From Prevotella sp. (GTDB lineage Bacteria > Bacteroidota > Bacteroidia > Bacteroidales > Dysgonomonadaceae): a stretch of DNA of 64,000 nt. The notes beneath the pieces were generated by a model that saw only the letters and a list, made by a program, of their open reading frames with translations, made no database searches and had not been told where the DNA came from. Location of the stretch: positions 96,001-160,000 of the forward strand of contig JAITVV010000092.1 in NCBI GenBank assembly GCA_031285625.1, read 5' to 3'. The first letter of the stretch is position 1, and each line of letters starts with the position of its first letter. The translations under genes and the position numbers were made by a program. This document shows positions 4,805 through 64,000 of the stretch, one piece after another.

Positions 4805-7800
4805 ATGATGAAGAAATCTGTACTTTTTCTTTTCATATCATTGGTTACTGTACCACTGATATTTGCCCAGGAAGCCCGGTTACTCCGATTCCCTTCCACC
4901 AATGGTTCCGAAGTTGTTTTCTCATATGCCGGAGACTTATATAAAGTCTCGATAAATGGCGGAGAAGCCAAACGCTTAACTTCACACATCGGATATGAGA
5001 TGTTTCCGAAGTTTGCTCCGGACGGAAACTCAATTGCATTTACGGGACAATATGATGGTAATACGGAAGTGTATACCATCCCTTCTGTTGGAGGTGAGCC
5101 TTTACGGATTACATACACCCCTACAAACAGCAGGGATGATATCGGCGACCGCATGGGGCCTAATAATATTGTTATGGGGTGGACTCCTGATGGCAAAAAT
5201 ATTGTATACAGGAACCGTATTAGCGACGGATTCTCAGGTCGTCTGTTCCTTGTAAATAATGAAGGCGGATTATCAAAGGGGCTACCATTGCCTGAAGGTG
5301 GATTCTGCAGTTACTCTCCGGATGGGAAGAAACTAGCTTACAATCGTGTAATGCGTGAATTCCGCACATGGAAATATTATAAAGGCGGGATGGCTGATGA
5401 TATCTGGATTTATGATCCGGCAGCAAAATCAGTAGAAAATATCACTAACAATGATGCACAAGATATTATGCCAATGTGGATTGGTGACGACATTTACTTT
5501 ATTTCCGATAGAGACCGTACAATGAATATCTTCGTATACAATACAACATCAAAACAGACATCTAAGGTTACTAATTTTACGGAATATGACGTAAAGTTTC
5601 CAAGTCACCATGGTAACATAATTGTTTTTGAAAACGGAGGCTATATATACAAGCTGGACGTCACCAATAAGCAGCCTGTAAAAATTAATATATCGCTTGC
5701 TTCAGATAATATCTATGCAAGAAGCGAGATTAAGAATGGAGAAAAGTACTTCAATGCAGCCAGCCTTTCACCTGATGGTGAACGGATAGTAGTAACAGCA
5801 CGTGGCGAGGTTTTTAACCTACCAGTAGATAAGGGTGTTACAAAAAATATTACCCGTTCGCCCGGAGCACATGACCGTGGTGCCGAATGGTCACCTGATG
5901 GCAAATATATCGCTTATATGTCTGATGCAACAGGAGAGACTGAACTTTATATGCAAGATGCAACAGGGTCCGATCCTGTACAACTGACAAAAAACAATGA
6001 TACCTATATCCGCTCTTTTCTGTGGAGCCCTGACTCTAAATCTATAGTATATACTGATCGTAAAAACAGAGTCAATTTATTAGATATCACCTCAAAGCAA
6101 AAAACAACATTGCTACAAGATCCTGTTGGAGAACCAAGAGGAGTTGTTTTCTCTCCGGATAGTAAATGGCTGACATATAGCCGCATGGGATCGAACGACT
6201 TCAATGTAGTATATGTATTCAATATTGCAGCAAAAAAAGAATATGCAATAACAGATAAATGGTATGAGTCTTATTCTCCGGCATTCAGTAAAGATGGAAA
6301 ATATCTGATATTCACTTCAGCGCGCGATTTTAATCCAATGTATGGATCAAAAGAATGGAATCATATCTATCAGGCTTCGAACGGAATATATTTAGCGCTT
6401 CTATCTAAAGACACACCGTCTCCATTCATGGAAAAAGATGCCGAAGTAAAAACAGGAGACTCCAAGAAAGCCGATGTACAGAAAAAGGACTCCACCAATA
6501 GTGTAAAAATCGACTTTGAAGGTATTGCGGATAGAATCATTAAATTACCTATTGCCACCGGATACTATTGGAGTTTCTATTCGGATGGTACGAAAGTATA
6601 TTATAATAAACAAGGGGCTGCAGCTGTCTTCGACCTCAAAACGCAAAAGGAAGAAACTATTGCAGACGGTGCATCGATACATATAAGTAATCATGATAAG
6701 AAAGCTATATTCGTTAAGAATAAACAACTATATGTTACGAATATACCTTCGGGCAAAACAGAGTTGAAAGATCCTGTTAATTTGTCCAATATGAAAATAA
6801 CAACAGACTATCCACAAGAATGGGCTCAGATATTCGATGAGGCATGGCGTGTTTACCGTGATGGTTTTTATGTAGAAAATATGCATGGTGTAGACTGGAA
6901 AGCCATTAAACAAAAATATTCAGTGTTACTACCCTATGTAAAAAACCGTTTAGATCTCAACTATATCATTGGTGAAATGATAGGCGAGCTAAATTGTGGT
7001 CATGCATACGTAAATCCGGGTGAGGTAGACCGTGCCGAAAGAATAAATACAGGTCTGCTAGGTGCTGAAATTTCAAGAGATAAGAGTGGATTCTTCAAGA
7101 TAGAAAAGATACTGCAAGGTGCATCATGGGATAAAAAACTTCGTTCTCCGCTGACTGAAGCCGGTATTGAAGCAAATGAAGGTGACTTTATTGTGGCAAT
7201 TGACGGAGTGCCTACCAACAGTGTAAAAGATATGTATTCGTTACTCACAGGAAAAGCTGGTGTACCAACGGAAATATCATTGAATAATAAAGCCCAGTTA
7301 GCCGGAGCCCGCAAAATAGTGATCAGCCCTATAGCTGAAGAGTATTCCCTTTATCATTACGAATGGGTACAGAATAATCTGAAAAAGGTAGAGAAGGCAT
7401 CCAATGGAAAAATCGGTTATATCTACATTCCTGATATGGGGCCGGAAGGCCTAAACGAGTTTGCCCGTTACTTCTATCCTCAGCTCGATAAGGAAGGGCT
7501 TATCATAGATGACCGCGCTAATGGTGGAGGCAATGTTTCGCCAATGATTCTTGAACGTCTGTCTCGCGAACCATACCGCCTGACTATGCGTCGTGGTTCT
7601 AATCGCATAGGTACAGTGCCGGATGCTGTGCAGGTAGGCCCTAAAGTATGTCTGATAAACAAATACTCTGCATCTGACGGAGACCTCTTCCCTTGGGGGT
7701 TCAGAGCTCTGGGACTTGGTAAACTTATCGGTACACGTACATGGGGAGGTATTGTCGGCATTTCAGGTTCTATGCCATTTATCGATGGAACGGATATCCG

Positions 7801-54101: not shown

Positions 54102-55412
54102 ATGATCTTAAAAATTAGAAGCAAAAACGATTATTTGCTTGATATTCTTTTCAAGAACCCGAACACAGACTATGGATTGTATTTCAAGACTTTAAAGAAT
54201 GGTCAGATAGTAGGAAATGCGGTTAACAAACATTACTATGAGGTAGTTTTTCAGGATACTAAATACAGTTATCTGCCTGAAGAAAGCAACCAGATAGACT
54301 ATCAAAGCTATTGCACACCATTATCTGTATTGCACATATGCAATGAGCTTTTTACACATATACTAAAAAGTAAAGACGAGTTTTCTCAAAAACCAATTAC
54401 GTGGCTTGACATTACACAAGGTAAAGCCGATACAGAAAATTGTATAATTGAAATACCTTCTTTTTATATTGACTCCAACTGGTTTCGAAACGAACGTTTT
54501 CTACCTTCAAAGTATTTTGATGGGGTAAAGGTCGAACAACAAACAAACCGCATCTTTAAGTTGACAATTACTGCAAAATCTGTTTTTGAAGCATTCAATT
54601 TACTGGCTTTGGTCGCATTGTTTACTCATGTTACAAATGAATATAGAATACATACTTATATAGATGATCAATTGGCCCAGAAATATGGACGAATATTGAC
54701 CAATATTGAAAATGTTCCATATTTTGTTTTCTACCTGTTCATTATGAAGGCTGTGAAATCCGAAAGTCAGTTTAAGGAACTGAAACCTTTATTCGAGAAA
54801 TATCTTGAAGGAAACGGATTGATAGCTAATCTGGTATTAAAAGGTACATACCTGCAGCGTATTCATTATATAGTTAATCAGCTAGAACTGGATATACCAA
54901 TTCTGGATATTGGATGTGGAGAATTCACCTACTATAAAAAGATGATGGCTAAGGAATTTAAAGCACCATATTATGCTGTAGATCAAGATAGCCAATTTGA
55001 ACGATTGAGTGAGAATATTGCACGAAGGTATGAGGAAGACAATCTGATATTCTACAATTCATTAGAACAGTTTACATCTGACGAACAGGTAAATATTCTT
55101 TTGACCGAAGTTATTGAGCATAATCCAAGGGAAGAAGCCGATATATTGATAAAGAAGGCTTTATCATTTAATTTCAACAAATTATTAATTACCACCCCAA
55201 ATGTGGAGTTCAATCAATTTTACAATATGGAGAGTGAGTTTCGCCACGACGATCATCAGTTTGAACTTACCCAAAAAGAATTTGAAGAACTAATAGAGAG
55301 TTGTATCTGGAACATGGAAAATCCGGAACAATATAAAGTAGCGTTTTTTCAATTAGGTGATAGTCTAAATGACATTCAGCCAACACAAGGATGTGTAATC
55401 AGAAAACAATAA
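54102..55412 (+). CDS. hen1: Hen1-type RNA 2'-O-methyltransferase of a Pnkp1-Rnl-Hen1 system
   Basis: N-terminal ligase-activating-like region (KNP), ILDIGCGE, EVIEH, ITTPNVEFN, FRHDDHQFE, PTQG. Confidence 0.85.
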   Translation: MILKIRSKNDYLLDILFKNPNTDYGLYFKTLKNGQIVGNAVNKHYYEVVFQDTKYSYLPEESNQIDYQSYCTPLSVLHICNELFTHILKSKDEFSQKPITWLDITQGKADTENCIIEIPSFYIDSNWFRNERFLPSKYFDGVKVEQQTNRIFKLTITAKSVFEAFNLLALVALFTHVTNEYRIHTYIDDQLAQKYGRILTNIENVPYFVFYLFIMKAVKSESQFKELKPLFEKYLEGNGLIANLVLKGTYLQRIHYIVNQLELDIPILDIGCGEFTYYKKMMAKEFKAPYYAVDQDSQFERLSENIARRYEEDNLIFYNSLEQFTSDEQVNILLTEVIEHNPREEADILIKKALSFNFNKLLITTPNVEFNQFYNMESEFRHDDHQFELTQKEFEELIESCIWNMENPEQYKVAFFQLGDSLNDIQPTQGCVIRKQ

Positions 55413-55441
55413 TCAGTTAATAGTTATCAAACGATATAATT

Positions 55442-56626
55442 ATGGAAGATTTAAAACGATTAAAAAATAGAATTGACTGGTTTTGTGAAAACAAAGTGAA
55501 TGCTTTTTCACCTACCATATCACCGGCTCCAAAATCGATTGAACGAAACGAGATAGAGAGTATATATGAAGGTATCCGTTACTTCTTTGAAAATGGAGTA
55601 CAGGAGATAGTGATACAAAAGAAATATATGGGCTCTTACTGTGATATATATTTAAATAAGAATCTGGAAGATACCTATTTCGTTAGCCGAAACGGGCATA
55701 AAATAGATCATATTGACTTGATTGCAGCAGTAGAAGCCTGTAGAGAATTGCACAGCCGTATCGACTGGACTGATACTGACATGCTCATTATCCAATCGGA
55801 ACTTATGCCTTGGAGTGCTTTAGGTAAAGGACTGATTGAAAATGAATTTGAAGGCTATCTGAATGTACACCAAAACCACTGCAACCATCTGACTCAATCG
55901 GATATATATGAGAAAATCTCAAAAGTAAAGGCTTCTCAACCTTACATAGACTTTATTGAGGATAAGAACAAACTTTCTCTCAAGGAATTGAGAGAAAGGT
56001 ATCCTCATCATATTATCCGCCAGTATGAATCTGTAGCCGATTTTAATATACTGGATATGGAAGTGTATAAAACAAGTATCGATATATACGAAAAACAGAT
56101 CAATCATTTTGGCAAAAAAGATTCTATACACTTCAAGCCGTTCAATATTCTGAAAAAAGTATTTAAAGACGGCTCTGAACTGATAGTGAACGACAACCTA
56201 AGTTATAGAGAAGTAAATAATGATGAATGTCTGAACTTGTACATACGCAACGAAGAGGAATTTAACCAGTCAGTAGAAGAGATATACAAGTGGTTTGTAA
56301 CCCTGGAGCAAAATATGGAAGAAGGTATTGTAATCAAACCCCGTCAGGCGTTTATCAGAAATATGCCTCCTGCATTCAAAGTAAGAAACAATAAGTATCT
56401 TACAATGATATACGGAGTAAATTTTCATGAACAATATGATTACTATCTTTATAAACGTAAGATCGACCGTAAACTGGAATGCTCCATTAATGACTGGATG
56501 ATCAATTGGGAGTTGCTGAAAGTGAAATACAAAGATATCAGCAAAGAAAACTACCTGTTGAAGAACCTTGTTTTCGACCGCATTATGGGAGAGAGGGTTG
56601 AAGCTGGATTGGATATGAGATTATAA
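55442..56626 (+). CDS. Stand-alone RNA ligase of the bacterial Pnkp ligase-domain type (Rnl)
   Basis: FSPTISPA, motif I QKKYMGS, ELMPWS, EEGIVIKP, KVRN..YL.MIYG, terminal DMRL. Confidence 0.88.
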   Translation: MEDLKRLKNRIDWFCENKVNAFSPTISPAPKSIERNEIESIYEGIRYFFENGVQEIVIQKKYMGSYCDIYLNKNLEDTYFVSRNGHKIDHIDLIAAVEACRELHSRIDWTDTDMLIIQSELMPWSALGKGLIENEFEGYLNVHQNHCNHLTQSDIYEKISKVKASQPYIDFIEDKNKLSLKELRERYPHHIIRQYESVADFNILDMEVYKTSIDIYEKQINHFGKKDSIHFKPFNILKKVFKDGSELIVNDNLSYREVNNDECLNLYIRNEEEFNQSVEEIYKWFVTLEQNMEEGIVIKPRQAFIRNMPPAFKVRNNKYLTMIYGVNFHEQYDYYLYKRKIDRKLECSINDWMINWELLKVKYKDISKENYLLKNLVFDRIMGERVEAGLDMRL

Positions 56627-56783
56627 GAATGAACTTGTACAAATTGCTGGGTATGTCTGAATATTTTTATGGAGATTCTATTGAAATAGATATTATAAAA
56701 ACAGACAAAACGAAAACAAGATTTTTGAATTAATCTTTACATACTTTATAAGCAAAAATTAAGTAAGACATAAGTATATAACA

Positions 56784-57698
56784 ATGAAAAAAAACTCCAA
56801 AATATTAATATTAATCGGTGCTCCCGGATCGGGTAAATCCACTTTCGCAAAGTATTTTATCCGCACCGAAGAAAATTGGATGCGTCTTTGCCGTGATGAT
56901 TTTCGCATGATGCATTTTACATATGCTAATTTATCTCCACGCGATGAAGGTTTGATTACCGACATGCTGGATGTATCTATAGAAGCATTACTAAAGAAAA
57001 GATGTAATGTGCTGATAGATGCTACTCACTGCAGAGCAGAATATCTGAACCACTATATAGAAAAATTTAACCATCTGGCAGATATATCTTTCAAAGTATT
57101 TGAAGCCGATGCCGAAGAAATAGCCGAACGCTGTGATAAACGTAATAAGGAAACGGGCAAATATATTCCGGCGAATGTGCAAAAACGCTATATAAAAGAA
57201 CTGGAAGAGTTGAAAAAGACATTTGATCTCTCAACCCGTCCTAAGATTGATAAAAGAGTAAAAATAGCAGAGCAGAATACAACCCTACCTAAAGCTGTTA
57301 TTTGTGACCTTGACGGAACGCTTGCCCTTATGGATGATCGTAATCCATTTGATGCATCCCATAGTGATAAAGATGAATTAAATAAACCGGTAGCAAATAC
57401 ATTAAAAGCTTTAGCGAAAGATGGTTACCAGATACTTTTGGTTTCAGGTAGGGAAGATAAGTTCAGAGAACCGACTAAGCGTTTTCTTGAAATCCATAAC
57501 ATTCCTTATCATCAACTTTGGATGCGCCAAAGCAAGGATTATAGAAAAGATTCGATAATAAAAAAAGAAATATTCGACGCTGAAATAAAGGATAAATATT
57601 ATATCGATTTAGTACTTGACGACAGAGACCAGGTGGTAGAAATGTGGCGTAAAGAGTTAAAGTTAAATTGCTTTCAGGTGAATTATGGGAATTTTTAA
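56784..57698 (+). CDS. T4-PseT-like polynucleotide 5'-kinase/3'-phosphatase (Pnkp1)
   Basis: GAPGSGKS, RDDFR, HAD DLDGT, SGR, DDRDQVV. Confidence 0.9.
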   Translation: MKKNSKILILIGAPGSGKSTFAKYFIRTEENWMRLCRDDFRMMHFTYANLSPRDEGLITDMLDVSIEALLKKRCNVLIDATHCRAEYLNHYIEKFNHLADISFKVFEADAEEIAERCDKRNKETGKYIPANVQKRYIKELEELKKTFDLSTRPKIDKRVKIAEQNTTLPKAVICDLDGTLALMDDRNPFDASHSDKDELNKPVANTLKALAKDGYQILLVSGREDKFREPTKRFLEIHNIPYHQLWMRQSKDYRKDSIIKKEIFDAEIKDKYYIDLVLDDRDQVVEMWRKELKLNCFQVNYGNF

Positions 57699-58352: not shown

Positions 58353-58455
58353 GAATATAGATACAGGCTTTCATACATAGATATTAACAATCCAAATTGT
58401 TATACAAGTAATACTGAATATCCTACCTTTGTTATATTAACTAAATAGTAGAATT

Positions 58456-58755
58456 ATGGTCTTAATACAAATAAATTTTGACTTTCCGGTAGAAATGATG
58501 GGTGACGCTCTCACTATAGGAGCTAAAGAATTGGCAGAAAGTATTAATAATGAGCCTGGTTTTGTTTCCAAAATATGGATAGAAAATGTTAAAACTGAAG
58601 AGAGTGGTGGAATCTATATTTTTAAAGATATGGAGTCTGCTGAAAAATATGCAGCGATGCACTCTAAACGAGTTGAGGCTATGGGTGCAAAAAATATTGT
58701 ATGCAAATTCTTTAATGTGAACGAGCCTTTATCTCGAATTAATCACGGAATATAA
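58456..58755 (+). CDS. YdhR-family putative monooxygenase
   Basis: LAESINNEPGFVSKIWIEN..EESGGIYIF...NEPLSRINHG. Confidence 0.88.
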   Translation: MVLIQINFDFPVEMMGDALTIGAKELAESINNEPGFVSKIWIENVKTEESGGIYIFKDMESAEKYAAMHSKRVEAMGAKNIVCKFFNVNEPLSRINHGI

Positions 58756-58758
58756 TAT

Positions 58759-58973
58759 ACAAGTAAGGTAACAGGCGAGAAGAGACTTGCCTTGCGGCTA
58801 TCGGACGTTCTTACCCCCAGGAGGCAGTGAACCGGCATTCGACATCTCAGGGAGACTTGCGCATTGTGCTTTGCCCTGTCGGTTTTCAACCCGACTTCGC
58901 GGAATCGGTTGCCCGAATCTAAGCTACCTTAGGCCCATTATCGAAGTAACCCTTCTCTACGACACTTACTTGT
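58759..58973 (-). ncRNA. Putative Y-RNA-like ncRNA (about 215 nt)
   Basis: Own TATCTTTG -7 box (58981-58988); ends pair (ACAAGUAAG/CUUACUUGU; GAGAAGGG/CUCUUCUC) around GUGUCGUAG; GCAA tetraloop hairpins on this strand; 5' end shared with 63933-64000. Confidence 0.7.
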
Positions 58974-59000
58974 TATTGTGCAAAGATAGTAAAAAAGAAC

Positions 59001-59189
59001 TTATCGGAAAGACTTCCTCTTCTGAATGGCTCCGGCAACAAGCATCACTAGCCCAAGGCCTGTAGTAAATCCCTGAAAGAAAGCAATTGCTGATATCGTA
59101 TGGTCCGGCGATAAATATTTTAAGATGAAAGACACAGATATTAGAAATAATCCCAAGCTTATTTTCTTATTCAAATTTATGTTTTTCAT
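59001..59189 (-). CDS. Small two-TM membrane protein
   Basis: 62 aa, two hydrophobic helices, TATATTTG box upstream. Confidence 0.55.
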   Translation of the reverse strand: MKNINLNKKISLGLFLISVSFILKYLSPDHTISAIAFFQGFTTGLGLVMLVAGAIQKRKSFR

Positions 59190-59223
59190 GATATGTCATT
59201 TTTATTATATACAAATATAATAA

Positions 59224-61980
59224 CTATCTCCATTTGTTCACTTGTTCCGATGTATTATCATCCGTAAAATTTGCCGAAAGGGCTTTCATTCTGGCCTCTA
59301 ACAGTTGTTTTCTACCTTCAATTGTACGTGTATAAATAAGGTCGCATGGACCAACAAGTTCGAGCCATTGCTGAGAGAAATATTGAGCAAGTTTTTTATT
59401 CCTACCCAAGATCTCAGGTACTGCATGGTAGTCGCGCCGGATTTGTTCTGCAAAGAATTTACTTTTACGTACGATTATATAACGTGGATTTTCAATGACA
59501 TTAACAATTTCTTGCAATGTATCGATAAATACAGCTTGCTCAAAAGTACTTCCTCCATCGAGATAACAATAAATGGCTCCAGCTTCATCAGAATATGCAA
59601 TAACCTTTAGGTTTGCAGGATTAGTAATTATTGTGCCTTGCTTGATTAATGACTTGAGCAACACATTTCCTATTTGTTGAATATCTTTAGAAATATCCCT
59701 GAATTTTATATATAGTTTTAGTGTCTTATAAGTTTGCCTGCCACACATAAATAATCCTGTAAGGGCAGTAAGAAGAATAAAGAAATAGAAATCTTTTGGG
59801 GTTCGCAATGCCTTTATATTGTGTATCAATGATTCAAGAGTCTGAGAAGCAAAAGCTGTAAGTAACAATAGAAGATCGGCTCCAAGATACTTTATCGTCC
59901 GCATCATGTATAGTTGTTTTAGCTTTGGGTATTCGCCCCCTTTTTCGCTATAGAACGGGATCTTTATCTCCTCTACAATTTGTACCCCTCCGGCAATAGC
60001 TTTTGCCCATCTTTCATTTAGGGTGCATCGGTCTCCGGCATTCGTTAATGTAACAAGATTAATTCCTCTGATTGTTTCCTCATTGTATGAATCCCTATGT
60101 ATATTAAGGCGTTGCAATCCATTTTCAATTGTCGGTTCCTCATAGTTTGATAATCCGACAAAGCTTCGAAAACGTCTTCTCATTACTTCCAGGTCGCTAC
60201 CTCCATCTTCCATTGTAGGATCGAGGCAGACAAGATGCCATATATTACTTGTTTTGGATGGATTATCTTTTTGTGTTCTTATTGCACGTCCCCGCATTTG
60301 ATTGGAAAGTACAAAAGATCCTACAAAACTAGCTAAAATCAGACTATTGATTGCCGGAGCATCCCATCCTTCTCCCAACAGGGATTTAGTACCGATAAGA
60401 ATCTCGATCTCCCCTTCCTGAAATAGTTGTGTTATGATTTGTACCAGTTTATTTTTAAGAGTTGCATTTGATTTGATAATCCTGTATCCATCTATATACT
60501 CATATGTGAGCGGATCCAGTTCTGTCATGCCGTGTATGATGCATAATTCATGGAAACGACTAATTGCATCAATAGGTATGATTGTTATTGAACCTGTGAG
60601 TACTCCGAGTTTTTTATTATCATTGTTATATTTACGTAGATGTTCGAATATGGGAATCACCCCAATCTTGCTTAACTCAATGTCTACATTGTCTTTATTG
60701 AGGCATTCACTTCGTATATAATCTGACAAAATAACCATGCGCAAATCAGATTGTAAATGGCTATGTTCAAAATCAACAATCTCTTTTATGCTATTCATCT
60801 TTCCATTACTGGAAATAAGAAGCTTATTGATGCGCTGATTATAAAGCATGTTCACTCTGTTGCGTTCGAGTACTCCATATCGTCTTAATTGATTCATCAA
60901 GGCTTCCTTTTCTTCTTCAAACTCTTCAAAGAGTTCTTTCTCCTGAAAAAGAAAGAAGTTAAGTAATATTTCAATACGTTCATAGAGCAATTCTGGAATA
61001 TCTACTTTGGGTATATCATTTCCCTCATATCCACTTACTATTCTTAAGTGGATAACGGGAATCTCGATATTATTTGCATGCAGGAATATAATACATGATG
61101 TGTATATAGGTAAATTATCATAAATCCAGTCCAGATACTTTTCCGGCTCATTCCATGCAGGGATACTTGCCATTGCATTAATCAAAGTCTCCGAATGGGA
61201 TAGCTTCTGATAAAGATCATTCATGTCTTTTCGAAACTTATTTATCTTTCGGTATTCTTCTTCAGTAGGCATTGAAAAGTAAATATGATCCTGATGAGGG
61301 CACAGATCGCCTTCGATAATTAGTTCCGGAATGGAAATTTCTGTGTCGATACTACCATTCAGGTCGAGGTAGCGTCTCCATTCAGTATAGCTGACATCAT
61401 AGGGTGGAGTGGCCGTAAGACCAACGACAAAGGGATCTAATTGTTCTTTAACCTTTATGAGAGTATGCCACCATTCATTCATCAGATGATGTGCTTCATC
61501 AACAACAATTGTCCCTATTCCTACACTTTTTAGTCCTTTAACGATAGATACCAGAGTGGATTTATTATGAGCTTTGGCTTTGATCGGTTTAGGTTCAGAA
61601 TTTTCATCTTCCGGTTCTTCATCTTCTGCTTGTATTTGTCCGCTACATGATGAGTGTAAGCCTTGATACGTCACTACAGTTATGAATGCAGGCTTGCGGA
61701 TATCGGTTGATATCCATTCGGGAGTGATATGTGTATCTAAGAATAGTTCACAAAAACGTTGTATCCATTGGTTCCGGATGGTTAAAGACGGGGCTAGTAT
61801 TAAAGTCGCTTTATTGATGCGTATTGCTACTTCTAGTCCTAATACTGTTTTACCTGATCCTGGAGGTGCGATAACATGCAAATGCCTGTCTTCCATATGG
61901 AAGTCTAATTCATCCAATACTTTTTGTTGGTATTTTCTCCAGGGATATTTAAATTTTGTATTGGATGGAAAGGTTTTCAT
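59224..61980 (-). CDS. SF2 DEAH-box helicase (ResIII-like) with C-terminal membrane segments
   Basis: APPGSGKT, VDEAHH, GLTATPP, LLGEGWD, QMRGRAIR; two hydrophobic helices near the C-terminus. Confidence 0.88.
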   Translation of the reverse strand: MKTFPSNTKFKYPWRKYQQKVLDELDFHMEDRHLHVIAPPGSGKTVLGLEVAIRINKATLILAPSLTIRNQWIQRFCELFLDTHITPEWISTDIRKPAFITVVTYQGLHSSCSGQIQAEDEEPEDENSEPKPIKAKAHNKSTLVSIVKGLKSVGIGTIVVDEAHHLMNEWWHTLIKVKEQLDPFVVGLTATPPYDVSYTEWRRYLDLNGSIDTEISIPELIIEGDLCPHQDHIYFSMPTEEEYRKINKFRKDMNDLYQKLSHSETLINAMASIPAWNEPEKYLDWIYDNLPIYTSCIIFLHANNIEIPVIHLRIVSGYEGNDIPKVDIPELLYERIEILLNFFLFQEKELFEEFEEEKEALMNQLRRYGVLERNRVNMLYNQRINKLLISSNGKMNSIKEIVDFEHSHLQSDLRMVILSDYIRSECLNKDNVDIELSKIGVIPIFEHLRKYNNDNKKLGVLTGSITIIPIDAISRFHELCIIHGMTELDPLTYEYIDGYRIIKSNATLKNKLVQIITQLFQEGEIEILIGTKSLLGEGWDAPAINSLILASFVGSFVLSNQMRGRAIRTQKDNPSKTSNIWHLVCLDPTMEDGGSDLEVMRRRFRSFVGLSNYEEPTIENGLQRLNIHRDSYNEETIRGINLVTLTNAGDRCTLNERWAKAIAGGVQIVEEIKIPFYSEKGGEYPKLKQLYMMRTIKYLGADLLLLLTAFASQTLESLIHNIKALRTPKDFYFFILLTALTGLFMCGRQTYKTLKLYIKFRDISKDIQQIGNVLLKSLIKQGTIITNPANLKVIAYSDEAGAIYCYLDGGSTFEQAVFIDTLQEIVNVIENPRYIIVRKSKFFAEQIRRDYHAVPEILGRNKKLAQYFSQQWLELVGPCDLIYTRTIEGRKQLLEARMKALSANFTDDNTSEQVNKWR

Positions 61981-62398: not shown

Positions 62399-63151
62399 AT
62401 GAGAGAAAAGAGGGATTTAAATCTGGCAGTACTGATTGATGCAGATAATGTACCGTATTCTAATATAAAAGGTATGCTGGATGAAATAGCCAAAATAGGT
62501 GTACCAACAATAAAACGTATTTATGGAGATTGGACAAAGCCAACAGTTTCGGGATGGAAGCAGCCGTTACTGGAGCATGCAATCACTCCGATACAACAAT
62601 ATAGCTACACTACGGGAAAAAATGCGACCGATTCTGCAATGATTATTGATGCCATGGATATTCTGCATAGTGACAAAGTAGATGGATTCTGTCTGGTTTC
62701 CAGTGATAGTGACTTTACCCGACTGGCAGTAAGACTCAGGGAATCTGGTATGCAGGTGATCGGTATAGGAGAGAAAAAGACGCCGAATCCATTCATTGTA
62801 GCCTGTGATAAGTTCATCTATATTGAAATTATCGGTGATTCTGAGGATCAGCAGGATACAACAACTTCTGCAACAAAGAAAGATAAAGAAAAGAATATAG
62901 AGCCTGTAAATAAAAAACTTATCAATCTGTTAAAGAGCACAGTGCGTGATCTTGCCGACGATGACGGCTGGGCCTATCTGGGAGATATAGGTAATCTCAT
63001 TATTAAAAAGCGCCCCGATTTTGATTCCCGTAACTATGGTTTCTCCAAGCTTGCAGCTTTAGTAAAGGCGCAAAAGAAGGTATTTGAGATAGATGAACGA
63101 AAGACTGAAAAAGGACACTCGCAATTGGTATATGTGAAAATTAAGGAGTAG
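62399..63151 (+). CDS. NYN (LabA/DUF88) ribonuclease with OST-HTH/LOTUS domain
   Basis: VLIDADN, GKNATD, IDAMD, SSDSDF; C-terminal PDFDSRNYGFSKL. Confidence 0.92.
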   Translation: MREKRDLNLAVLIDADNVPYSNIKGMLDEIAKIGVPTIKRIYGDWTKPTVSGWKQPLLEHAITPIQQYSYTTGKNATDSAMIIDAMDILHSDKVDGFCLVSSDSDFTRLAVRLRESGMQVIGIGEKKTPNPFIVACDKFIYIEIIGDSEDQQDTTTSATKKDKEKNIEPVNKKLINLLKSTVRDLADDDGWAYLGDIGNLIIKKRPDFDSRNYGFSKLAALVKAQKKVFEIDERKTEKGHSQLVYVKIKE

Positions 63152-63918: not shown

Positions 63919-63932
63919 ATTAAAAAAATCTT

Positions 63933-64000
63933 GTGAAGTAACTATCACAAAGAGGCTAGCAAATTTTAAGTCCGAAGGAACTCTATGCTACGACACTCAC
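63933..64000 (-). ncRNA. Second, minimal Y-RNA-like ncRNA (5' end may extend past the window)
   Basis: GUGAGUGUCGUAGCAUAGAGUUCCUUCG...CUCUUUGUGAUAGUUACUUCAC; same end-pairing architecture as 58759-58973. Confidence 0.55.

Follow-up and report, generated by a model that had tools for sequence, protein, structure and literature searches.

A conserved 215-nucleotide RNA near rsr in Bacteroidota, a candidate large Y RNA with a 23S rRNA-like distal module

What is the 215-nucleotide (nt) RNA encoded on the minus strand at positions 58759 to 58973 of this 64-kb stretch of a Dysgonomonadaceae genome, and what might its distal domain recognize? The stretch, which we call the window, is C37:96001-160000 of a 4.84-Mb assembly in 96 contigs. 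An interpretation made earlier from the letters alone (the sequence-only reading) had placed the RNA in a new subclass of Y RNA, the RNA partners of the Ro60 ortholog Rsr; its coordinates and strand proved correct when we reread the sequence. We find that this is a structured noncoding RNA gene, that it is conserved, and that its stem is common to a set of rsr-linked paralogs. We also consider it probable that the RNA is a Y RNA partner of Rsr, of a new large subclass in which a replica of ribosomal RNA (rRNA), rather than of transfer RNA (tRNA), serves as the handle. We base the Y RNA identity on linkage to rsr, on a stem shared by eight RNAs of the genome, and on co-occurrence with TROVE in 8 of 35 genomes. 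Together with the lack of a matching Rfam family, these sequence comparisons support the proposal of a new subclass.

Bacterial Y RNAs have paired ends and a GNCGAAN0-1G motif in the 5′ strand, and they are encoded within a few kilobases of rsr on the same strand; the survey of the Y RNA family YrlA was limited to 4 kb, according to the available part of that study (PMC4201824). In this genome, rsr encodes a predicted 504-amino-acid protein with a TROVE match (6.5e-31) and a Ro60 vWA match of 27.4 bits, which just misses the cut-off of 27.7. These domain matches identify the protein as a Ro60/Rsr ortholog. Its gene lies upstream of the 215-nt RNA on the same strand at a distance of 5.0 kb, slightly more than the survey limit, and the sequence-only reading, which had made its case depend on a Ro60 gene in this genome, is borne out on that point.

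Further copies of the first ~30 nt of the RNA lie elsewhere on this contig, in the same orientation. Scanning the genome with a pattern for this 5′ element gave 10 matches, eight of which are stem-bearing RNAs, all on the minus strand of C37; the other two, on C33 and C91, stand in other contexts and were taken as chance. The eight RNAs have in common the stem, its bulge, the motif GYCGUAG, and UACUUCG, and all are on the rsr strand. One of them, a YrlB-like paralog of ~75 nt (63922 to 64000, minus strand, running 3 to 4 nt past the window end), begins ~10 nt past the stop codon of rsr; the match to it given in the sequence-only reading, 22 of 28 positions without gaps, is exact. Another, the eighth, lies at C37 ~186460 to 186612. 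A head-to-tail array of five different Y-like RNAs (117 to 138 nt) is found 4.3 kb past the window end, at C37 ~164340 to 165030 (L001 ~5340 to 6040, minus strand). The array members have the same stem and different distal modules: one is a subthreshold YrlA match with T and D arms, two contain a T-arm-like GGUUCGA hairpin, and two contain D-arm-like elements. Two of the paralogs score below threshold with the YrlA model, at 35.2 and 34.3 bits (gathering score 69), and the paralogs reach only 27 to 39 bits.

To describe the fold, we used a model-based alignment of 30 matches, 27 of them distinct, fitted to a hand-curated structure, which favors that structure. The terminal stem of the sequence-only reading, ACAAGUAAG paired with CUUACUUGU, is present and is followed by a bulged U and then by a G-C and a U-A pair. 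Its 5′ strand (ACAAGUAAG-U-GU) occupies 58962 to 58973, on the minus strand like all elements of the RNA, and its 3′ strand, ACCUUACUUGU, occupies 58759 to 58769, with a U run afterwards in most relatives. Double (compensatory) changes occur in 9 of the 11 pairs of this stem, P1. GUCGUAG, the presumed Ro60-contact motif (58957 to 58963), appears as GYCGUAG in 8 of 8 paralogs of the genome. The second stem, P2, which had also been described correctly, pairs GAGAAGGG (58950 to 58957) with CUCUUCUC (58777 to 58784) and has double changes in 5 of 8 pairs; it is followed, as claimed, by UUACUUCG (58942 to 58949), which all paralogs contain and whose last bases form the 5′ strand of a helix-69-like hairpin. 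P1 and P2 together have double changes in 14 of 19 pairs, with 96 to 97% of alignment cells paired.

The distal domain of ~165 nt has a conserved multihelix fold with several hairpins. Three that had been proposed before are present with compensatory changes in relatives: P5, UCGG-GCAA-CCGA with a GNRA loop (58905 to 58916; 3 of 4 pairs with double changes); P6, GUCGG-GUUGAAAA-CCGAC (58878 to 58895; 2 of 5 pairs, each in 12 of 27 sequences); and P11, GCC-GCAA-GGC (58789 to 58798; 3 of 3 pairs), which is missing in the G035 copy. P7, a hairpin of variable length (58861 to 58869), has double changes in all three modeled pairs. Two helices from the sequence-only reading did not hold up as general features, since neither is conserved among relatives. 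The CUAAG-GUAG-CUUAG hairpin (P4, 58919 to 58932) is confined to Dysgonomonas, its inner A-U pair being present in 4 of 27 distinct sequences, and in place of the CAGGG/CCCUG pairing the relatives keep P8, GUCUC-CCU-GAGAU (58844 to 58856), with four pairs retained in 26 to 27 of 27 and a longer form in some relatives (e.g., L027 and L042). The most conserved part is the P9/P10 core, GUUCAC-UGCC...GGGGUA-AGAAC (58807 to 58832). P9 was invariant in the first sequence set because the search pattern forced its letters; a U-A to C-G change is seen in 7 of 27 sequences, all seven from the set that did not force the P9 motif.

Across the 27 distinct sequences, 93.2% of cells in paired columns are paired, compared with 35 to 45% when the 3′ partners are slid by one to three columns. 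Double changes occur in 29 of 57 pairs versus 13.1 ± 2.0 in column shuffles, and 0 of 500 shuffles equaled the observed count. RNAalifold, applied to an independent MAFFT alignment of 26 sequences, recovered P1, P2, P5, P6, P8, P9, and P10, with double changes in 23 of the 48 pairs of its structure, and did not return P3 (the helix-69-like hairpin), P4, P7, or P11. It also proposed that CGGU of the 23S-like stretch (see below) pairs over a long range with RCCG before P9; in this four-pair helix the changes are mostly one-sided.

We observed that the RNA and the TROVE protein are distributed together. A BLAST search of 170 family genomes located the RNA in five, including the window's own, all of them members of its genus. 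A covariance model, R1, was built from five genus sequences and the hand-curated structure; the window's RNA scores 263 bits with it. R1 detected stem-bearing RNAs in 8 of 35 genus genomes, at four to seven per genome, and the large class (>180 bits) in five of those eight. TROVE was found in exactly the same eight genomes and the other 27 have neither, so that the covariance-model search for Ro60 linkage suggested earlier finds the two together in 8 of 8 genomes versus 0 of 27. In an order-wide sample of about one genome per genus, taken with stricter filters, R1 matched only 2 of 151 genomes, including the window's own. The TROVE family also matches in the Bacteroides thetaiotaomicron control genome, a species that could be checked for Y RNA arrays.

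Relatives outside the genus came from two exact-pattern scans. One, free of 23S-like letters, required GGTTCACTGCC of the distal part in addition to the Y stem element and UACUUCG; it gave 15 loci in named genomes: nine from Chryseobacterium, three from Dysgonomonas, and one each from Niastella, a Chitinophagaceae strain, and a Saprospiraceae metagenome-assembled genome. The three Dysgonomonas copies are identical to copies from the genus genomes (L028 = G009, L031 = G023, L033 = G016), which makes Dysgonomonas the probable genus of the window. An rsr gene is present within the 8-kb locus in 11 of the 15, often less than 1.5 kb away, and at L023 and L029, the loci in which the two could be read together, the RNA comes directly after rsr in the same orientation, as the first in a series of stem-bearing RNAs. 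The complementary pattern, the Y stem plus the 23S-like motif with nothing from the distal core, gave 14 metagenome loci, of which 13 have a full-length R1 match (85 to 172 bits) and one is cut by the locus end; the same pattern had no match in phage contigs. Here rsr is found in 6 of the 14 loci, and the others have little upstream flank. The relatives range from 202 to 313 nt in length.

The results above led us to ask what the distal domain resembles. No 23S rRNA gene is assembled in the window's 96-contig genome, and we therefore took 23S genes from relatives in the genus. In its first 20 to 45 nt, the distal domain repeats a part of 23S rRNA that consists of the helix-69 3′ strand, joined in some copies by the loop of this helix, and of CCUAAGGUAGCG after it. 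In the window, this stretch (AUAAUGGGCCUAAGGUAGC, 58923 to 58941) is identical to 23S at 17 of 19 positions with an exact run of 11, and relatives match 19 to 33 nt of the same 23S stretch, including an exact 27-nt match in the G035 copy and 18 of 19 identical positions in the G016 copy. When the L029 copy was compared with two complete related genomes, it found only their 23S genes (four and five copies, with E = 5e-7 over 30 nt at 97% identity); the runners-up had E ~3. In the structure line of the Rfam large subunit (LSU) model, the matched stretch starts in a hairpin of six pairs, of which it takes in the loop and 3′ strand, and goes on through a C(UAA)G turn and GUAGC to the G that closes a bulged hairpin. 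We take these to be helix 69, the following junction, and helix 71, at about E. coli positions 1906 to 1962. The stretch is identical in the four 23S genes compared. The non-tRNA-like effector domain of the sequence-only reading was rightly recognized and can now be described more sharply as one that begins with a replica of 23S helix 69 and the junction after it.

Seventeen sequences had been found without 23S letters in the search pattern, and in local alignments against the whole 23S rRNA this same stretch was the best match for 16 of them. In 15 of these 16, 0 of 200 shuffles reached the alignment score; in the remaining one, 4 of 200 did. Among the 17, CCUAAGGU is present in all, CCUAAGGUAGC in 16, and AACGGUCCUAAGGUAGCG in 11, and over the 27 distinct sequences CCUAAGGUAGC is kept letter for letter in 26, from four orders. 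Sequences with the full helix-69 loop include a Dysgonomonas genome, a Chitinophagaceae strain, and several metagenome contigs; because the loop is spread across lineages in this way, it does not stem from one recent gene conversion. Three copies extend the 23S identity into GCGAAAYUC, and the P5 hairpin is framed by the G and C that in 23S close the bulged hairpin of helix 71. The similarity therefore consists of a short near-exact stretch and its local topology, without collinearity with 23S. We rejected the idea of a 23S gene fragment or pseudogene, as there is no match to the LSU model, the identity covers only 19 to 33 nt, and the remainder covaries as a fold of its own. A 14-nt exact 23S match in P6 (AGUCGGGUUGAAAA, 58878 to 58895) was also set aside as chance or lineage specific: it falls in a different 23S hairpin loop (1658 to 1671 of the G032 gene), and where the 23S of Chryseobacterium and Chitinophagaceae differs, their Y RNAs do not follow.

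As a control, we compared 46 stem-bearing RNAs, extracted from all loci by a heuristic that misses some class members. All 11 large-class RNAs match this 23S stretch and none of the 35 others do, and 11 of those 35 contain a near-exact 14- to 20-nt copy of the D arm of a tRNA-Ile gene. The matches are class specific, and we therefore conclude that the source copied is tRNA for the short paralogs and rRNA for the large one. In nine Chryseobacterium loci (L021, L022, L024 to L026, L030, L032, L034, and L035), an RNA of ~150 nt directly follows the large one and contains a 19-nt stretch of the tRNA-Ile D arm with zero or one mismatch (E ~5e-6 or 1e-3 against one rRNA operon).

How could such a module act? 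Rsr would bind the stem of the 215-nt RNA as it binds other Y RNAs, and the rRNA replica would be the handle that attracts a component normally recognizing this part of the 50S interface. That component may be a modification, assembly, splitting, or recycling factor that binds helix 69 or 71; alternatively, it may be the decoding region of the 30S subunit, which helix 69 touches. Rsr, with whatever exonuclease works with it, would thereby reach ribosome-related substrates, in the way proposed for YrlA and its tRNA-like module. According to the available part of PMC4201824, YrlA is similar enough to tRNA for TruB and DusA to modify it, and a Deinococcus Y RNA tethers Rsr to PNPase.

Several observations weigh against this reading. 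Part of them concern the fold. On its own, the window's RNA does not fold unusually well (-67.6 kcal/mol, z = -0.78 relative to shuffles at -64.0 ± 4.7; 47 of 200 shuffles reach its energy), and the case for structure therefore rests on comparison. P3 amounts to three or four pairs without covariation, and the CGGU/RCCG helix preferred by RNAalifold would undo it. Others concern the replica: the window copy is the least rRNA-like and the one exception among the 17 alignments, its best 23S alignment being a 17-mer elsewhere; the full helix-69 loop is found in only 7 of 27 distinct sequences; and the Rfam LSU model gives the RNA no score. The RNA also departs from published Y RNAs. The motif GNCGUAG is one base off GNCGAAN0-1G, with U for the first A, so that GUCGUAG or GCCGUAG in all paralogs fits the YrlA motif at six of seven positions, and lengths of 215 nt here and 202 to 313 nt in relatives exceed the 80 to 130 nt of the Y RNAs characterized in the available part of PMC4201824. 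Size, we note, describes the known Y RNAs and does not define function. Outside Dysgonomonas, the RNA has no conserved protein neighbor except rsr; the variable neighbors include a 280-amino-acid open reading frame (ORF) without a Pfam match, a helix-turn-helix protein, a glyoxalase, and a sulfate permease. Finally, contigs from RNA libraries (four runs, three studies) cover parts of 58500 to 59272, one of 153 nt lying wholly within the RNA and others running into the flanks, and they are without information on ends, strand, or level.

We considered whether the RNA might be no partner of Ro60 at all, being instead an independent structured RNA (a ribozyme, a regulator, or the RNA of a mobile element) that merely neighbors rsr. 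Its distance of 5 kb from rsr in this genome, its own promoter box, and its size, about double that of known Y RNAs, could be read in this way. However, the stem, bulge, GYCGUAG, and UACUUCG are common to seven paralogs, one of which immediately follows rsr; co-occurrence with TROVE is strict; and in other orders this RNA is the one that opens the array, right after rsr. Moreover, the locus contains no reverse transcriptase, transposase, or downstream regulated gene, and the next gene, ydhR, converges on the RNA. An independent RNA is thus very unlikely. A second possibility accepts the Y RNA and denies the mimicry: the 23S-like stretch would be a relic or a structural block, with the effector bound at the P9/P10 core or elsewhere. 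The core is the most invariant part of the RNA (GGUAAGAACG in 17 of 17) and is without an rRNA counterpart, RNAalifold engages CGGU of the 23S-like stretch with RCCG far downstream, and the helix-69 loop is dispensable in most lineages. On the other hand, CCUAAGGUAGC has the conservation described above in four orders even though every model leaves most of it unpaired, which points to recognition, and independent lineages keep or approach the exact helix-69 loop. We therefore regard a nonmimetic module as improbable.

The replica might also be a decoy or sentinel, such that nucleases or toxins attacking this part of 23S rRNA cut or bind it instead and thereby free or activate Rsr together with the neighboring Hen1/Pnkp repair enzymes. 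This would suit the setting of the Dysgonomonas RNA inside a repair island (Hen1, Pnkp ligase, Pnkp kinase-phosphatase, RlaP, NYN-LOTUS, and helicase), the Pnkp-type phosphatase flanking the L029 array, and the mixing of tRNA-like and rRNA-like replicas in the arrays; another repair operon linked to rsr responds to damaged tRNAs as its signal, according to the available part of PMC7790460. Yet the Chryseobacterium loci have rsr and the array with no repair genes within 8 kb, and the loop of helix 69 is often shortened, remaining whole in only the minority of sequences given above. Nor do we know of any toxin that targets the conserved 23S stretch, which counts against a decoy. We judge a decoy function to be unlikely and favor a Y RNA whose rRNA replica recruits a ribosome-related component to Rsr.

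Searches for known families are consistent with a new subclass. Rfam 15 gave no match at the gathering score in the whole 64-kb window, and thus no 6S or other family; this covers the families that had been suggested for checking (YrlA, 6S, and Bacteroidales motifs). At E ≤ 10, the region from 58400 to 59400 had only weak, unrelated matches (mir-71, SMAD5-AS1_3, and STnc410). The absence of a T arm noted before stands: ARAGORN found no tRNA in the window, and the 215-nt RNA had no match to YrlA (RF02553) or tRNA even at E ≤ 10. In L024, a match to transfer-messenger RNA (17 bits, gathering score 47) overlaps a class member and its neighbor and was treated as noise.

The closest comparison is with YrlA of Salmonella, Mycobacterium, and others. 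Like YrlA, the RNA lies beside rsr on the same strand, has paired ends with a G-N-C-G-purine-rich 5′ motif, has several paralogs per locus, and appears to copy an RNA of the translation apparatus in its distal module. Unlike YrlA, whose module copies the D and T arms of tRNA, it copies 23S rRNA, and it differs further in its GNCGUAG motif, in its 202- to 313-nt length range against ~114 model positions, and in its additional P9/P10 core and GNRA hairpins. With Yrn1 of Deinococcus radiodurans it would share its mode of action, the stem holding Rsr and the distal part holding a second component (PMC4201824, available part); we found no sequence similarity between the two, and Yrn1 has a T-arm-like element that the 215-nt RNA lacks. 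The short hairpins YrlB and Yrn2 resemble the ~75-nt paralog at the window end, whose stem the 215-nt RNA shares while adding its ~165-nt domain. Outside the Y RNAs, rRNA mimics in ribosomal-protein leaders likewise repeat a piece of rRNA in a nonribosomal RNA with the potential for recognition by a factor; those leaders are cis-acting mRNA elements that mimic shape, whereas here a stand-alone RNA has near-exact identity over as much as 33 nt, on a putative Ro60-binding stem (review cited in PMC8058203, available part). In the literature searched, no paper described Y RNAs of Bacteroidota or a Y RNA module resembling rRNA, although the 254 species with YrlA in PMC4201824 may include Bacteroidota.

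Bacterial Y RNAs are known as tRNA mimics, and the purpose of the mimicry is a standing question. A second, independent mimicry on the same putative Ro60-binding stem, of a 23S rRNA element that lies at the subunit interface and is universally conserved, suggests that copying RNAs of the translation machinery is a general design principle of Y RNA distal modules. It also hints that Ro60 particles could be directed to ribosomes. We speculate, with a small though real chance of being right, that the rsr arrays of Bacteroidota are collections of translation-RNA replicas, the short RNAs copying tRNA arms and the large one copying the interface element of 23S helices 69 to 71. The helix-69 replica would then let the Ro60 particle bind either a factor that holds helix 69 or the decoding face of a 30S subunit, free or damaged, at the place that helix 69 itself takes in the 70S ribosome. 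Ro60 with its exonuclease or repair partners would in this way be delivered to ribosomes. If true, ribosome targeting of this kind would be new among described Ro60 particles. The 23S-like stretch offers a concrete bait for an effector search and a testable link between Ro60 and ribosome surveillance. It would also follow that Y RNAs can be twice the accepted size and that a phylum can have four to seven different Y RNAs per rsr gene, none of these array RNAs being captured by current Rfam models.

Upstream of the RNA, the -7 promoter element of the sequence-only reading is present as UAUCUUUG (58981 to 58988, minus strand; TAnnTTTG type), read directly from the sequence, with a gap of 7 nt to the first RNA base at 58973. 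We take TAnnTTTG to be the consensus of the Bacteroidota -7 element. The stand-alone copies in loci L004 to L007, L023, and L029 likewise have a box of this type in front of them.

The sequence-only reading had expected RNA-repair genes nearby, and Hen1, a Pnkp ligase-domain protein, a Pnkp kinase-phosphatase, and RlaP indeed surround the RNA; the neighborhood of rsr further includes the ydhR-family gene, which converges on the RNA from its downstream side, a helicase, an NYN-LOTUS protein, and an FkbM-type methyltransferase. The Hen1/Pnkp cassette occupies 54102 to 57698 on the plus strand, with Pnkp split into the ligase-domain protein (55442 to 56626) and the kinase-phosphatase (56784 to 57698). 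The 918-amino-acid ResIII/DEAD-type helicase (59224 to 61980, minus strand) is directly upstream of the large RNA both here and in G016. Between helicase and RNA, the window has a hydrophobic 62-amino-acid ORF (59001 to 59189, minus strand) without a Pfam match; in the G016 relative, the helicase match stops ~36 nt from the RNA, leaving no space for this ORF. The NYN-LOTUS protein (62399 to 63151, plus strand) is the divergent neighbor of the large RNA in G009 and G023, and either it or the helicase could be a lineage-specific partner. The FkbM-family methyltransferase and the RlaP nucleotidyltransferase are encoded divergently beside rsr (L001 2905 to 4904, plus strand).

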